This document shows positions 13,986-19,158 of a stretch of DNA of 32,000 bases, piece by piece. Position 1 is the stretch's first letter; each line of letters begins with the position of its first letter. Below the pieces are notes generated by a model. The model searched no databases and had not been told where the DNA came from. It worked only from the letters and a program-made list of their open reading frames with translations. The position numbers were made by a program, and so were the translations under genes. This DNA comes from an uncultured bacterium (GTDB lineage: Bacteria > Patescibacteriota > Gracilibacteria > UBA1369 > PNNO01). The stretch lies in NCBI GenBank assembly GCA_963704705.1, contig OY969931.1, positions 990,001 through 1,022,000 on the forward strand, written 5' to 3'.

Positions 13986-14011
13986 TAAGACGAAAATTAA
14001 AACAAAAATAA

Positions 14012-14369
14012 ATGGTTGAAACATTATTAAGTTATATAGTTATCGGTCTCGAATTTATTGGAGTAGCAATTATAGTTATTGGAGTTTTAAAAACTCTATG
14101 TTGTTTTTGGTAAATGTTTGCTTAAACGAATCGCAATCAGCCCTTTAATGACTGAAATAAGAATAGATCTGAGTAATTATTTGATTTTAAGTTTGGAAGT
14201 AATTATCGGCCGGGATATTATTGAAACTTTTTTAAGACCTACACTTGGAGATATTACAATACTCGCTGTATTGGTTGCCCTTCGTACTTTACTAGCATTT
14301 TTCCTTAATTACGAAATGAGTCATATGGCAAAACCAAGGCTTGAGAAAGCATTGGAAGAATCAAAATAA
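14012..14369 (+). pseudogene. DUF1622-like small membrane protein interrupted by a +1 frameshift in a T5 run
   Basis: ATG 14012 gives MVETLLSYIVIGLEFIGVAIIVIGVLKTLCCFW* (stop 14111-14113). The track ORF 14118-14369 continues in the next frame with ...LILSLEVIIGRDIIETFLRPTLGDITILAVLVALRTLLAFFLNYE, the LE..(a/g)(R)DII.T core that I recall for DUF1622. Removing one T from TTTTT (14104-14108) gives a single ~118-aa ORF. Confidence 0.6.
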
Positions 14370-14415: not shown

Positions 14416-15399
14416 ATGAAAAAATTTTTATGTTTCATTTTCATGTTTGTTTTCTTTACTCAATCTGCATTCGCGGCATTTATTGATGTTCCGCAAACTC
14501 ACCCTAATTATCAGGCTATAAACTATATGCAAAGAAAAGGTATAATCCAGGGTTATGAAGACAATACCTTCAGACCGGATCAAAATGTTGTTAGAGCTGA
14601 AGCAGTTAAAATCATTTTAGCAGCACTGTATGATTCTTTTGACACAGTAAGTGAAAATCCATTTCCGGATGTATCAACAGATCAATGGTTTGCGCCATTT
14701 GTAAAAAAAGCAAAAGAACTTAATATAATAAGCGGAGACGGTGTTACCGGGAATTTTGAAGGAGCAAGAAACGTTAATTTAGCTGAGTTTTTAAAAATCC
14801 TTACTCTTGCATATAAAGTTGATTTAAGTCCTTATCAAAATCAAACAGAAGTTATTTTTGATGATGTACAGGATTTAAAACAATGGTTTATTCCTTATTT
14901 ATATTATGCAGCTTCAACAAACCTGATTCATGGTGATCAAAACAATTATATTTATGTTGGAGACCCGTTAACACGAGCTGAAGTAGCTGAAATCACTTTT
15001 AGACTAATTATTAATATTGAAGGCGGCGATGTTCAGCTTTATTTGAGTATGGCAGAAGCTGAAATGATAAAAATTCTACAATTTCTTGATAATAATGATA
15101 TAAATAATGCTGAAATTTCCGCTGCAAAAGCGGTTCAGTATTCAAATCAGGCAGTAAGTTTATCTCCGGATAAATCTATTGTTTTAGCTGCACAAAAAAT
15201 TGCACAGGCTTTTGATAAATTGGTTAAAGGTTATCGAAGCGGTTTAAATTTAGATTTCACTACAACTGCAAGTCTTGCAGGAGAAGCATGGAATCTTGCA
15301 AATGAAGCTGTTGTTATTGATGGATCAGTACAATCATTATCGGATACAATAAAAGAAATCGCGCACTCCATGGCTGAAGATGCGCGATCATCCAATTAA
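14416..15399 (+). CDS. Secreted protein with three N-terminal S-layer homology (SLH) domains and a helical C-terminal region
   Basis: Signal peptide MKKFLCFIFMFVFFTQSAFA. The three SLH repeats are FIDVPQTHPNYQAINYMQRKGIIQGYEDNTFRPDQNVVRAEAVKIIL, FPDVSTDQWFAPFVKKAKELNIISGD...VNLAEFLKILTLAY and FDDVQDLKQWFIPYLYYAASTNLIHGD...LTRAEVAEITFRLI. Confidence 0.85.
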   Translation: MKKFLCFIFMFVFFTQSAFAAFIDVPQTHPNYQAINYMQRKGIIQGYEDNTFRPDQNVVRAEAVKIILAALYDSFDTVSENPFPDVSTDQWFAPFVKKAKELNIISGDGVTGNFEGARNVNLAEFLKILTLAYKVDLSPYQNQTEVIFDDVQDLKQWFIPYLYYAASTNLIHGDQNNYIYVGDPLTRAEVAEITFRLIINIEGGDVQLYLSMAEAEMIKILQFLDNNDINNAEISAAKAVQYSNQAVSLSPDKSIVLAAQKIAQAFDKLVKGYRSGLNLDFTTTASLAGEAWNLANEAVVIDGSVQSLSDTIKEIAHSMAEDARSSN

Positions 15400-15412
15400 T
15401 TTATTAGGTTGT

Positions 15413-16633
15413 TTAGCTGCCTGTATTAAAGTTTAATACAAGACTACCAGCTTCTGCTCCTCCGTTTTTATCAGTGGCAAGTTTCACTGTTACTGTAAAC
15501 CAACCCCCTGCAGTCCAAGTTCCTCCTGTAATAGTCATGTTTGTTGACTCAACCCAGGTATTAGCAACTGAACTTGTAAGGCCGGTGTTGTTACTCATTG
15601 TTACAGCAGCATCTGCAGTATCCTGCATTGTAAGTGCCAATTGATTATCAGCAGCAGCTGTTGTATCAGTTCTGTATTTAAATTCAATCGGGTTTGTTTC
15701 CCAACTATTAAAGTTATCAGGAAGCTGAATTCTTACTTTAATATCATAATCCTGATCAGTAGTTTTTGTTGTTTGCCATCTATAAGAGTTTTCAATGTTA
15801 GTTGCGTCAAAATAATAAGTTAATTGACCTATATTATTACTTCCGTCACCATAATACGTTGAATTTGGATACAAAGGTGCAACAAATATTGAATTTGCTC
15901 CTGAAACATCCGCAAGAGCTACCCAGCTTGAACCATCATATACATAGAATGTATCAAGATCAGTTCTGTAAAAAACCTGACCTTCAACCGCTCCGCCAGG
16001 GAATGAAGTACCCTGATCAATTACCATTTCAACTGCTAAATTCTTATTAAAATCAATATCTCCATTTACTTCCAACGTTCCGTCAACATATAAATCATCA
16101 CTAATATTAAATCTTGTGTTTCCTGAATCCCAACTTATAACTTCTGCTAAGGTTGTACCAAATTGAATTGATATGTCTCCGCCAGTATCATTAGCATCCA
16201 ATAATAAATCTCCATCAGTATTAACACTTCCTGTATTATTTACATCACCAGTGATATTTAAATCATCTGATACAGTAAAATCATCAGTTGCATTATTATA
16301 TTGAATTGAACCAGCTCCATTATTGAAATCAACAGACGAATCAGCGCCTGTTCCATCAACATTGATGCTTAAATTTTCACCTTCCAAATCCAAATTACCT
16401 TCTATATATAAATCGTCTGTAAATTCAAAACGATTATTCGTAACATCATATCTCAATATTTGCCCGAGTGCGTCACCGAACTGAAGTTCAACGTCGGTTG
16501 TACCGTCTCCGTCATCAATAATGAAGAAAGATTCAGTATTAACAAGGTCACCGGTGGTTGCCGCATAGGCAGGCAAAGCCATAACCAGTGAAAGCGCTAA
16601 TAATAGCGGAAGTTTTAGTAATGTGTTTTTCAT
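15413..16633 (-). CDS. Secreted Asp/Gly/Thr/Asn-rich repeat protein (surface paralog A), unknown family
   Basis: Signal peptide MKNTLLKLPLLLALSLVMALPAYA. It has three ~50-aa repeats and a C-terminal domain shared with the upstream gene (DGSNNIGxL, ENxYxW, QDYDI, LPxxFxxWET, FxYR). Confidence 0.75.
   Translation of the reverse strand: MKNTLLKLPLLLALSLVMALPAYAATTGDLVNTESFFIIDDGDGTTDVELQFGDALGQILRYDVTNNRFEFTDDLYIEGNLDLEGENLSINVDGTGADSSVDFNNGAGSIQYNNATDDFTVSDDLNITGDVNNTGSVNTDGDLLLDANDTGGDISIQFGTTLAEVISWDSGNTRFNISDDLYVDGTLEVNGDIDFNKNLAVEMVIDQGTSFPGGAVEGQVFYRTDLDTFYVYDGSSWVALADVSGANSIFVAPLYPNSTYYGDGSNNIGQLTYYFDATNIENSYRWQTTKTTDQDYDIKVRIQLPDNFNSWETNPIEFKYRTDTTAAADNQLALTMQDTADAAVTMSNNTGLTSSVANTWVESTNMTITGGTWTAGGWFTVTVKLATDKNGGAEAGSLVLNFNTGS
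16061..16528 (-). repeat. Three tandem ~50-aa intragenic repeats in surface paralog A
   Basis: aa 36-85: FFIIDDGDGTTDVELQFGDALGQILRYDVTNNRFEFTDDLYIEGNLDLEG. aa 89-135: SINVDGTGADSSVDFNNGAGSIQYNNATDDFTVSDDLNITGDVNNTG. aa 143-191: LLLDANDTGGDISIQFGTTLAEVISWDSGNTRFNISDDLYVDGTLEVNG. A single copy occurs in paralog B: VFILDNDNTSITSIDLQFGNTLGKILSWDLVNGYFNFNDNVNIEGDLTLTG. Confidence 0.65.
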
Positions 16634-16676
16634 TTTTTTAGGTTTTAAATGATATTTTAATGAAATTAATTATATT

Positions 16677-16705
16677 ATTATACACTATTTTTATAAAATT
16701 GTAAA
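16677..16705 (-). promoter_or_regulatory. Internal sigma70-type promoter candidate between the two paralogs
   Basis: On the minus strand: TTTACA (16705-16700), a 17-nt spacer, then TATAAT (16682-16677). It lies 44 nt upstream of the ATG at 16633, within the 75-nt intergenic gap. Confidence 0.35.
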
Positions 16706-16708
16706 GCG

Positions 16709-18115
16709 TTAGCCTTGGTAATTTAGCTTAATTTCACCTAGATTTGCTGTTTCATTATCTTTAGCGTGAACTTTTATTACAATTATAAAGCTTTCACCAG
16801 CTGCAAAGATCGGGGTTCCGCTAAAATTAAGGCTTGTTTGAGCCCATGCCGTACTAGCTAAATTACTTGAAGAACCTGTTAAGGTGACGGGGTTTCCATT
16901 TGTATCATATACAAAAATATCTAATTTCGTATCATTTGTATCTGCGCTTGATGATCTATAATTAAACTGCCATGGATTTACAGTCTCCCATGCTGTAAAT
17001 GTTTTAGGAAGACCCACCTGAAGGACAATATCGTAATCCTGTAACGTGCTTTGTGAACTGGTCCATTCATAATAATTTTCTTTGGCTGTATTATCGTTAT
17101 CCAAATAAAGTCTACCAATATTATTTGATCCGTCAGCAATATAACTTGCGCCCTCAAATTGAGAATTTAGTATTATTGATCGATTAACCGGCCCTGTAGT
17201 TATACCTGCTATAGCCTGATCAATATCATCAATAGCCGTCTCTAAATCCCCTGCTGAATAGTAATTTCCGTCAGTTGCTTCTATATCAATCTCTGAAGCA
17301 TCATGTTTTGACGCTCCTCCATCCAAATGTCCATCAACTGTTGTGCCCAAATCACCTACATCAACACCATCAACAGTGCCTGTTAAAGTTAAATCCCCTT
17401 CAATATTTACATTGTCATTAAAATTAAAATAACCGTTTACCAAATCCCATGACAGAATTTTGCCCAAAGTATTACCAAACTGTAAATCAATTGATGTAAT
17501 TGAAGTATTATCATTATCTAAAATAAAAACATCCTCATTAGTTCCTCCTGGTATTGTTTGAAGAGGGAAAATTCCGCCGGTTCCAAGCAAAGCAATATCG
17601 CCGTCATTGAACCCAATGTCAGCATTATCAAGTGTGTCAGCATTTAAAGCATAGGGCACAGAACCTATTGGAGCTCTATCAACCAATGGATTCCCCGGGG
17701 CACGATCCAAAACTTCATATGAAGTATCTGGATCACCTGTTTTTTTAATTTCAACTTGAATATATAAATGATAAGCTGGATCAATTTGAGGTAATGGAGT
17801 AACTGTACCCAATTCAAATGTCACAAAGCCCTTTGTAGTTGGTAATGCAGTTTGAACTTCTTGCCATCCCGAATAATTTGGAGCACCAGTATTTATCGAC
17901 CCTGCTGCAATATCACCTACGTTAACAGGGCTTTGGCTCCAAAAACTAAATCTGAATGTGTGACTACTCGTTAACGGACTAGTTCCTGCAGAATCAAGAA
18001 GTCTGGCTTCATAAATCATGCGCTGAGGAGCTAAAGATACAGCGCTAACTGCACTAATATTTATTAGTAAGCAAAAAAGTACTGCTGCAATTTTAATTAA
18101 TCTTTTCTTTTGCAT
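16709..18115 (-). CDS. Secreted repeat protein (surface paralog B), unknown family
   Basis: Signal peptide MQKKRLIKIAAVLFCLLINISAVSA. It shares one copy of the LQFG..LG.IL.WD....F.F.D...IEG.L.L.G repeat and the ~150-aa C-terminal domain with 15413-16633. Its start overlaps the upstream gene by 19 nt. Confidence 0.75.
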   Translation of the reverse strand: MQKKRLIKIAAVLFCLLINISAVSAVSLAPQRMIYEARLLDSAGTSPLTSSHTFRFSFWSQSPVNVGDIAAGSINTGAPNYSGWQEVQTALPTTKGFVTFELGTVTPLPQIDPAYHLYIQVEIKKTGDPDTSYEVLDRAPGNPLVDRAPIGSVPYALNADTLDNADIGFNDGDIALLGTGGIFPLQTIPGGTNEDVFILDNDNTSITSIDLQFGNTLGKILSWDLVNGYFNFNDNVNIEGDLTLTGTVDGVDVGDLGTTVDGHLDGGASKHDASEIDIEATDGNYYSAGDLETAIDDIDQAIAGITTGPVNRSIILNSQFEGASYIADGSNNIGRLYLDNDNTAKENYYEWTSSQSTLQDYDIVLQVGLPKTFTAWETVNPWQFNYRSSSADTNDTKLDIFVYDTNGNPVTLTGSSSNLASTAWAQTSLNFSGTPIFAAGESFIIVIKVHAKDNETANLGEIKLNYQG

Positions 18116-19098
18116 AACGAATAAATAGCTGTTATTAAAATTAATATATAAATGAATGATAAATCAAAGCGAATACACGATTTTTTCACGTCAGCTAAAA
18201 TCATTTTTACATAAGCGATTCCATCAGCTATTTCAAACTCAAGTGTTTTATAATTTGTCTGAACTATTACATTCCCTTCATTTTTCAAAGCATAAATCAA
18301 TACAAAATATTTATCATCAGGTAAAATATCAATTGATTTTATTTTAAATTCACCGTTTTCATCAGCAACAGCATAAGATTTATTTATATGATCATTTTCA
18401 AACCAAATAGCAACAACTTCATAGCCGCTTCCTGTTTTTCCTTCAATAGCTACGTGGTTGTTATCGCTTTCCAGTACTTCTTCCGGGATATTTAATGTTA
18501 ATGGTTCTATATCATAGTCAGTCACCTGAATAAAATCATATTCATCATATTTTTTATCTAACTGATAATAAATAATCGGTTTATCTTCAGTAAAGATGAA
18601 GATGTTTTTATCTTCTTTAATCATTTCTTCCACTTCTTCAGGTGAAGGTTTTAAAATTTCAATTGGTTCCTGTTGTTCTGATATTTGAACAGGTTCTTCA
18701 GCTGCCTGCTCTTCAGATGAAATCAATTCTCTGCTTTCTTCAGCAGGTATTGTTGAAATTATCGGAATATCTGAATAAGCCAAAGGTCCGCCGCCACCGC
18801 CTGAGCCTGTATTTGAGACTCCGCCGCCAGTAGGTGGCGGGGTTGGTGGAGTTAAAGTTAAATCCAAATCACTATTTGCATCCACTAAAGTATAAGATCC
18901 AGATTTAGAGTATCTTTCAGTCCATGATATTGAACTTAAATCAAGAGAATAAGATAGACTTTCCATATATCCCTCGTTTGTTCCAAAATTTAAATTTTCA
19001 TCATCTACTTGATAAGTACTGCTTGCAGAAGCATAAGCAAAACCAGCACTTAAAATGAATATTACAAGAAATGAAACTATTTTTTGTTTTTCTGACAC
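18097..19098 (-). CDS. Secreted, C-terminally membrane-anchored protein with Pro/Gly linker, acidic region and Ig-like/CarboxypepD_reg-like beta domain (GTG start)
   Basis: N-terminal signal IVSFLVIFILSAGFAYASA. Linker PPTPPPTGGGVSNTGSGGGGGP, then an acidic stretch EESRELISSEEQAAEEPVQISEQQEP. The segment VAIEGKTGSGYEVVAIWFENDH...AVADENGEFKIKS has a beta-sandwich-like pattern. The C-terminal TM helix is FDLSFIYILILITAIYSL followed by CKRKD. Confidence 0.6.
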   Translation of the reverse strand: MSEKQKIVSFLVIFILSAGFAYASASSTYQVDDENLNFGTNEGYMESLSYSLDLSSISWTERYSKSGSYTLVDANSDLDLTLTPPTPPPTGGGVSNTGSGGGGGPLAYSDIPIISTIPAEESRELISSEEQAAEEPVQISEQQEPIEILKPSPEEVEEMIKEDKNIFIFTEDKPIIYYQLDKKYDEYDFIQVTDYDIEPLTLNIPEEVLESDNNHVAIEGKTGSGYEVVAIWFENDHINKSYAVADENGEFKIKSIDILPDDKYFVLIYALKNEGNVIVQTNYKTLEFEIADGIAYVKMILADVKKSCIRFDLSFIYILILITAIYSLCKRKD

Positions 19099-19129
19099 GT
19101 TTTTATTTTTTATTTTTTTGTTTCATAAA

Positions 19130-19158
19130 ATTATACCATAAAATTGCTAAACGTGCAA
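19130..19158 (-). promoter_or_regulatory. Near-consensus extended -10 sigma70-type promoter for the surface-protein operon
   Basis: On the minus strand: TTGCAC (19158-19153), a 17-nt spacer ending in TGG, then TATAAT (19135-19130), which forms TGnTATAAT. It lies 32 nt upstream of the GTG at 19098. Confidence 0.5.

Follow-up and report, generated by a model that had tools for sequence, protein, structure and literature searches.

Among the closest described counterparts of the four-gene locus analyzed here, which lies at positions 14416 to 19158 of a 32,000-nucleotide stretch of an uncultured gracilibacterium (contig OY969931.1, positions 990,001 to 1,022,000; hereafter the window), are the mosaic adhesive trimer (MAT) fibers of Bdellovibrio bacteriovorus. 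In these fibers, a beta-rich N-terminal domain of ~130 amino acids stands straight after the signal peptide and is presumed to lie close to the cell surface and to bind an unidentified surface element there, and the C-terminal adhesive tips are exchanged among family members (Caulton et al. 2024; PMC10769870). The locus comprises three minus-strand genes, here called gene 1, paralog B, and paralog A in the order of transcription, and a convergent plus-strand gene for a protein with S-layer homology (SLH) motifs. Its host is an ultrasmall Peregrinibacteria-type bacterium from within the candidate phyla radiation (CPR) with a genome of 1.37 Mb.

To our knowledge, how CPR bacteria (Patescibacteria) recognize and attach to their hosts is largely open, with type IV pili as the one device that is well supported. 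This CPR class is known to include predatory epibionts, and the fibrous coat of Vampirococcus, a member of the same class, has been attributed to giant proteins (PMC8080830). The Peribacteria genome paper goes no further than a general mention of large Cys-rich exported proteins and S-layer genes (PMC4736985). In the literature searched we found no paper that describes the plausible host-attachment device considered here in this group, and none that links MAT-type fibers to CPR bacteria. We conclude that the region probably encodes a wall- and membrane-anchored, glycan-binding fiber adhesin module of a monoderm CPR bacterium. Among the evidence for this reading are the base domain of B, the fold of the tips of A and B, the joining of gene 1 to B, and the co-inheritance of the SLH gene.

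Based on profile matches, the N-terminal ~140 amino acids of B are a probable remote relative of the Bdellovibrio MAT base domain. The NCBIfam model NF053851 (Bdello_MAT_N), searched with family matches counted at E < 0.1, is matched by 31 of 51 B-family members, all below its curated cutoff of 60 bits, and no other model is matched by more than 3 of the 51. The best match reaches 25.5 bits (E 9.5e-6), and the best matches run co-linearly along nearly its entire length (amino acids 27 to 169, for instance, correspond to model positions 9 to 148 of 162). The position and size of the B domain agree with those published for the MAT N-domain, which supports the similarity. Because no score reaches 60 bits and MAT_N, when searched against all six frames of the genome itself, gave no match, we speak of a probable remote relationship and do not claim membership.

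The resemblance extends beyond this domain. As in MAT fibers, the signal peptide of B is followed directly by a beta-rich domain of ~130 to 140 amino acids, the putative base, then by a probable repeat stalk and an exchangeable beta-sandwich or lectin-type tip. Both families are mosaic, with an overall fold akin to that of phage tail fibers, and both hosts live on other bacteria. The tips found across the present family include jelly roll, F5/8 type C, LVIVD, and DUF7402 domains. In contrast to Bdellovibrio, the host here is a monoderm, the S74 chaperone domain is lacking, and the base domain is accompanied by a hairpin-linked membrane stalk protein and a dedicated SLH anchor. MAT fibers are trimers, whereas A and B are known here from their genes and from monomer models.

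Those models, built with AlphaFold2 (AF2) from family alignments, are most informative for the C-terminal domain of ~160 amino acids shared by A and B, whose predicted local distance difference test (pLDDT) values exceed 90. The N- and C-terminal end domains of B have pLDDT values of about 90, and confidence is lower in the repeat and spacer regions (60 to 87 in the repeats). Foldseek searches of the PDB with the C-domains returned carbohydrate-binding modules (CBM61, CBM6, CBM35, CBM11, and CBM22) and BT0996-C, all with probability 1.00, E values of 1e-5 to 1e-3, and target TM-scores of 0.45 to 0.62. Eph ligand-binding domains and Cry toxin domain III were matched as well. As modeled, the shared domain is a CBM- or galactose-binding-like jelly roll and not the beta-helix material that an earlier note on this DNA, made from its letters, had envisaged. 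The jelly-roll tips of A and B most likely bind a glycan; a Pfam search with A and B gave no match to a CBM family. The earlier note had recognized no named family in the operon proteins. This holds in that A, B, and gene 1 had no match above threshold in Pfam, NCBIfam, PHROGs, or PDB sequences, nor did the A-family and B-family profiles in the PDB, but the N-domain of B is probably a remote MAT_N relative and the C-domain is CBM-like in fold.

The best structural matches of the jelly roll are the C-terminal domains of two Klebsiella phage proteins, the K2-2 tailspike (PDB 8iq9) and Kp7 gp52 (PDB 7xyc), at E values of about 1e-5 and target TM-scores of about 0.5. Against viral models (BFVD), B gave 118 Foldseek matches at E <= 1e-3, mostly to tail fibers, tailspikes, host-specificity proteins, and collagen or S74 proteins. 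A and its relatives also bear a tail-fiber-type motif: amino acids 192 to 243 of A match phrog_8309 (E 1.1e-6), and one homolog carries a weak DUF2793 match. Depolymerase tailspikes are enzymes, so these matches might suggest that A, B, or both are secreted glycan-degrading enzymes of the same kind. We regard this as very improbable, as the resemblance is confined to the noncatalytic jelly-roll domain, the repeat region is too short for the catalytic beta-helix that A and B lack, and no Pfam, NCBIfam, or PDB sequence search matched any enzyme.

The same viral matches, together with weak PHROG hits (phrog_8309 and a further tail-fiber match, phrog_32829, at E 2e-4), could mark the genes as a phage tail-fiber remnant or a tailocin-type element. 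To this idea we give almost no credence. A and B are chromosomal, cellular proteins, all proteins of the locus carry Sec signal peptides, no virion or other phage genes lie nearby, the flanks are housekeeping genes in conserved synteny (pfkB/Vut_1 on one side, DUF1622 on the other), and the family has spread vertically over many families of the class.

In the adhesin module that we favor instead, gene 1 and B go together. In all examined loci where the two genes are split, they overlap, by 4 to 28 nucleotides, and in three related loci (L013, L029, and L032) they form one open reading frame (ORF). These joined ORFs contain a membrane hairpin, made up of gene 1's transmembrane helix, a short loop of basic character, and the signal-peptide-like segment of B. 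We searched 1.84 billion representative proteins with a profile of the B base domain, obtained 763 matches at E <= 1e-3, and examined the architecture of 142 newly retrieved top matches. The base domain is internal in 89 of these representatives, always with a hydrophobic hairpin before it; the LQFG unit, a repeat described below, occurs in 138, and a jelly-roll tip in 100, the remaining tips being different. Because 89 of the 142 are fused, the joined form is the commoner state, and the window lineage has the split form. A classic soluble domain fusion does not describe the join, since the transmembrane helix, the basic loop, and the signal-peptide-like segment are all retained.

The signal peptide and C-terminal transmembrane anchor that the earlier note ascribed to gene 1 are also seen by rule and hydropathy, the means by which signal peptides and transmembrane segments were called throughout. 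Between them lie a conserved N-module of ~55 amino acids with three S-x-S-Y/F-type strands, a Pro/Gly stretch, an acidic stretch, and a beta domain that the earlier note took as Ig-like. An alignment of orthologs shows that the protein evolves fast while retaining this single architecture. Two giant ORFs of the same genome also carry this beta domain, close to their C-termini. Anchoring of gene 1 by sortase was considered and rejected, as no conserved LPXTG-like motif precedes the transmembrane helix; the genome has one sortase (450660-451091). In some Peribacteraceae-like relatives (L013:2992-3567, P0219, P0272, and P0064), a gene of the homeodomain-like helix-turn-helix families HTH_28/HTH_32 lies directly upstream of the fiber ORF or in frame with it, and may be a dedicated regulator or a gene derived from an insertion sequence.

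The SLH protein was described earlier as a convergent neighbor with three SLH motifs. The motifs are clear (PF00395, 102.4 bits against a cutoff of 20.8, E 1.2e-29, in three stretches), and the gene is indeed convergent, but it is more than a neighbor. The cell surface is unusually SLH-rich, as the genome encodes 75 SLH motifs, spread over about 32 ORFs, among them a frame of about 4965 amino acids, and since SLH proteins are so common, adjacency alone means little. What singles this protein out is its 132-amino-acid C-terminal domain (SLH-C), which has no paralog among the about 32 SLH ORFs. It adjoins the operon in 7 of 7 loci, at identities from 82% down to 28%, and the linkage persists at L010, where the flanks are different; in L011/L012 and L013 the SLH gene lies on the opposite side in divergent orientation and the domain is kept. 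In the order, SLH-C is present in 12 of 61 genomes, all of them among the 14 that have B, with B and SLH-C sharing a contig and lying no more than about 14 kb apart; none of the 47 B-negative genomes of the order has it. Across 201 genomes of the class, 65 have both, 6 have B only, 17 have SLH-C only, and 113 have neither. The pairs are mostly 1 to 15 kb apart, the patterns agree family by family, and the co-occurrence recurs over more than 12 GTDB families. We therefore reject coincidence as the explanation of the SLH neighbor, in view of its unique C-domain, its conservation, and its co-occurrence with B. The SLH gene is a dedicated, co-inherited component of the module.

A CsaB-type pyruvyl transferase is needed for making the SLH ligand, and such an enzyme is encoded in this genome (598181-599068; PF04230, E 1.9e-48), so the co-occurrence that the earlier note had proposed to check is found. 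In cellulosome anchoring proteins, SLH scaffoldins hold proteins without SLH motifs on the cell wall. The small SLH protein of the present locus would similarly be a wall adaptor for SLH-less partners, an interaction suggested solely by co-inheritance; unlike the scaffoldins, it has no cohesin- or dockerin-type modules, and its 132-amino-acid C-domain belongs to no known family. In its three SLH motifs and the CsaB-type enzyme of its genome, it resembles the SLH-anchored surface proteins SpaA and SlhA of the monoderm Paenibacillus alvei (PMC6081394).

The tight linkage to a wall-binding SLH protein, the CBM-like fold, and the good conservation of the C-domain would also be expected if the jelly rolls bound the cell's own wall polysaccharide and the module were an envelope scaffold or a wall-remodeling accessory. 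Tip conservation among orthologs, in particular, fits binding to the own wall polymer equally well. We nevertheless consider this quite unlikely. B would then be fixed at both ends, by its membrane-tethered base and by its tip; relatives have swapped the tip for domains such as discoidin and LVIVD, which are typical of adhesins that face outward; and no enzyme gene is conserved in the cluster.

Homologs of the operon proteins are named only "hypothetical" and stem from bins of Patescibacteria, Peregrinibacteria, Peribacteraceae, and Gracilibacteria. The nearest relatives keep the gene order Vut_1, PfkB, gene 1, B, and A, convergent with the SLH gene, which is followed by DUF1622, and the order gene 1-B-A with an SLH gene is kept in all loci examined. 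The earlier note had chosen beforehand three points that could tell against its proposal; on these, no homology of the paralogs to an enzyme was found, signal peptides are present, and the arrangement is conserved. In other families of the order, the locus has B, an A-like protein, one or two SLH-C genes, and, between B/A and the SLH gene, two or three extra LQFG-headed proteins of 400 to 950 amino acids, the long members of which have an F5/8 type C, LVIVD, or DUF7402 domain at the C-terminus. The module is present in all sampled genomes of its own family and of one sister family of the order; in most other families no copy was found, in genomes that are 95 to 100% complete. Class-wide, it occurs in about one third of the sampled genomes and is common in several other orders. 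Because it was not found in most families of the order despite this completeness, the patchy presence speaks for an accessory function and not for a core function of the envelope.

This distribution bears directly on the possibility that A and B are S-layer or outer-sheath subunits, with the SLH protein as wall adaptor and gene 1 as membrane tie. Much about the locus would suit such a role: in their mature form, the secreted proteins are acidic (pI about 4) and contain much Thr, Asp, Asn, and Gly but no Cys; a near-consensus promoter stands before A; orthologs share conserved tips; a dedicated SLH partner lies alongside; and CsaB is encoded in the genome. Related CPR cells, moreover, bear a thick fibrous coat (PMC8080830). 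We consider the S-layer role unlikely, as the module was not found in most families of the order and the protein family is mosaic, with C-terminal domains swapped and the number of paralogs varying. Neither A nor B shows a lattice-forming family signature or itself carries SLH motifs, and their fold matches are tail fibers, tailspikes, and CBMs; Pfam, NCBIfam, PDB sequence, and Foldseek searches gave no match to a known S-layer family or structure. The earlier picture of an anchor plus two fiber or S-layer-type subunits is thus backed by the folds in its fiber part, whereas its S-layer part found no positive support.

In the adhesin module that we propose, B and A would be Sec-exported fiber proteins, each with a CBM-like jelly-roll tip for a glycan. 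B would be the base-bearing fiber, starting with the domain related to the MAT N-domain, and A a second fiber subunit that its own promoter may allow to be made in larger amounts. The LQFG units would probably act as an oligomeric stalk or docking element. Gene 1 is predicted to be a type I membrane protein, with its N-module carried on a long Pro/Gly/acidic spacer above a membrane-proximal beta domain, a transmembrane helix, and a basic tail. It would be co-made with B, here through the 19-nucleotide overlap and in most relatives as one hairpin-joined polypeptide, and may form the membrane tether or assembly platform for the fiber base. The SLH protein would bind a pyruvylated wall polymer through its three motifs and hold the fibers at the wall through its unique C-domain. 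The likely role of the whole is attachment to the surface of a host or partner cell. Of this picture, the gene set, the domain folds, the fusion of gene 1 with B, and the co-inheritance are shown by the data, and the oligomeric state, the contacts between the parts, the ligand, and the role are inferences. A more specific version, which we offer only tentatively and think somewhat doubtful, is that the class attaches to its hosts by miniature MAT-type trimeric fibers whose base derives from the gene 1-B hairpin pre-protein, is released by signal peptidase, and is docked to the SLH adaptor via the LQFG unit or the base domain.

Several observations weigh against the adhesin module. The similarity to MAT_N does not exceed 25.5 bits against the cutoff of 60, is sub-threshold throughout, and amounts to 13 bits for the B of the window itself, and the genome-wide search with the model was empty. 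A and B are short proteins (about 45 kDa), at most half as long as MAT fibers of ~1000 amino acids. The jelly-roll matches are generic, with target TM-scores of about 0.5 and sequence identities of about 10 to 14%, and orthologs have conserved, not hypervariable, tips in both A and B. In three loci of one sister family, no gene 1-like ORF was seen upstream of B. Finally, the co-occurrence of B and SLH-C was counted across related, non-independent genomes, and in the 17 class genomes with SLH-C only, no B was detected.

If the proposed module is real, it is a concrete candidate for a second attachment device: glycan-binding fibers whose membrane tether and wall anchor can be identified. It suggests that tail-fiber-like MAT adhesins, so far described in Bdellovibrio, have counterparts in monoderm ultrasmall bacteria. 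Relative to known tail-fiber-like and SLH-anchored adhesins, the new features are the hairpin-linked membrane stalk and the dedicated SLH adaptor. Gene fusion and co-inheritance single out candidates for the anchoring partners, of which none is known for the Bdellovibrio fibers, and the gene 1 and SLH-C proteins would, if the more specific MAT-type version above is true, represent the first cell-side receptors to be identified for a base domain of the MAT type.

The coordinates of the features are collected in Table 1. The four ORFs, the overlap of 19 nucleotides between the start of B and the end of gene 1, and the 13 nucleotides between the convergent stops of A and the SLH gene are all confirmed from the sequence. 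All four proteins begin with a hydrophobic segment and an AxA-type site.

Table 1. Genes, protein domains, and candidate regulatory signals of the locus (window positions; aa, amino acids; nt, nucleotides).
Feature	Position	Strand	Residues	Basis or remark
SLH gene	14416-15399	+	327 aa	ORF
SLH protein, SLH motifs	14479-15000	+	aa ~22-195	Pfam PF00395, three stretches, after signal peptide
SLH protein, C-domain	15001-15396	+	aa 196-327	132 aa, helical-looking from sequence alone
Terminator-like hairpin and U-tract	15348-15389	-		stem 15358-15389, -18.1 kcal/mol, then U-rich tract
Paralog A	15413-16633	-	406 aa	ORF
A, CBM-like jelly roll	15416-15901	-	aa ~245-406	AF2, Foldseek PDB
A, tail-fiber-type motif	15899-16021	-	aa ~205-245	phrog_8309 match at aa 192-243
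A, LQFG units	16058-16534	-	aa 34-86, 87-135 (degenerate), 140-192	HMM census
Internal promoter candidate before A	16677-16705	-		TTTACA, 17 nt, TATAAT; 11/12 consensus
Paralog B	16709-18115	-	468 aa	ORF, ATG start
B, CBM-like jelly roll	16712-17203	-	aa ~305-468	AF2, Foldseek PDB and BFVD
B, spacer between LQFG unit and jelly roll		-		poorly modeled
B, single LQFG unit	17366-17542	-	aa ~192-250	HMM census
B, MAT_N-like base domain	17606-18040	-	aa 26-170	AF2; Bdello_MAT_N matches in family
Gene 1	18097-19098	-	333 aa	ORF, GTG start
Gene 1, transmembrane helix	18115-18174	-	aa ~309-328	hydropathy; basic tail after
Gene 1, beta domain		-	aa ~205-300	ortholog alignment
Gene 1, conserved N-module	18859-19029	-	aa 24-80	ortholog alignment
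Gene 1, signal peptide		-	aa 1-23	rule/hydropathy
Operon promoter candidate	19130-19158	-		TTGCAC (19158-19153), 17 nt, TGgTATAAT; -10 hexamer 19135-19130; extended -10

The promoter sequence reported earlier in front of gene 1 is present, but to call the operon strongly promoted was an overstatement. Of the 6 positions of its -35 element, only 3 agree with the consensus, and a consensus scan misses it for this reason; the TGnTATAAT element is found 5' of gene 1 in at least 4 of 6 related loci (L006, L008, L009, and L011). The top sigma-70-like match between positions 14000 and 19600 is instead the internal candidate before A, in the 75-nucleotide spacer between B and A, and among the related loci this is kept only in L006, the closest relative examined. 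The terminator-like hairpin lies 3' of the A stop, antisense within the last 50 nucleotides of the SLH coding sequence, and the 131-nucleotide region around it folds with a z score of -4.1 relative to shuffled sequences. With the operon terminator inside the convergent coding sequence, the 3' ends of the two transcription units are bound to overlap or collide.

The paralogy of A and B that had been read from the sequence is borne out by BLASTP (32% identity over 281 amino acids, E 7e-31), with an additional, separate match of the repeats (E 1e-10). The shared LQFG repeat and C-terminal domain are likewise both real; the repeat count needed correction, to three ~50-amino-acid units in A, the middle one degenerate, and one in B. 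In a census of the whole 1.37-Mb genome with hidden Markov models (HMMs) built from A-family and B-family alignments, the C-terminal domain occurs in A and B only and the N-terminal domain of B in B only. Mature A and B have a pI of about 4.05 and, as the earlier reading had it, no Cys, in a genome whose overall Cys content is 1.0%. Weak beta-solenoid (Bactofilin, PF04519) matches fall in the repeat region of 16 of 47 A-family members, below the cutoff wherever scores were read: 12.2 bits for the A of the window against a gathering threshold of 27.9, and at most 25.7 bits among the individually scanned homologs. The best family-wide E value is 1.6e-6. Precomputed Pfam matches to PF26696 and PF28542 exist for three A homologs (P0030, P0031, and P0058), so a DUF entry may already exist for part of the family.

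The census also recovered a third LQFG protein, secreted and 536 amino acids long, with two LQFG units, ~52 kb away (contig positions 1058976-1060592, minus strand). It has a signal peptide, each unit is succeeded by a tail-fiber-type motif, G-R-x-Y-x-N-T-T-D ... C-N-G-x-x-W, and a beta-rich domain of ~150 amino acids, and a collagen-like G-x-Y stretch separates the two halves. Neither gene 1 nor an SLH-C partner was seen near it.

Some relatives read TGA as a sense codon, and matches to them are interrupted by 12 to 18 TGA codons. In one Peribacteraceae relative (L011/L012:8129-13938), the fiber genes are followed by a gene for a protein of ~2300 amino acids made of LamG (Laminin_G_3) and TIG repeats. 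The DUF1622 gene after the SLH gene is a single ORF of 117 to 144 amino acids in four related loci; its counterpart in the window (14012-14369) is open only as an ORF of 83 amino acids (14118-14369), which fits a frameshift.

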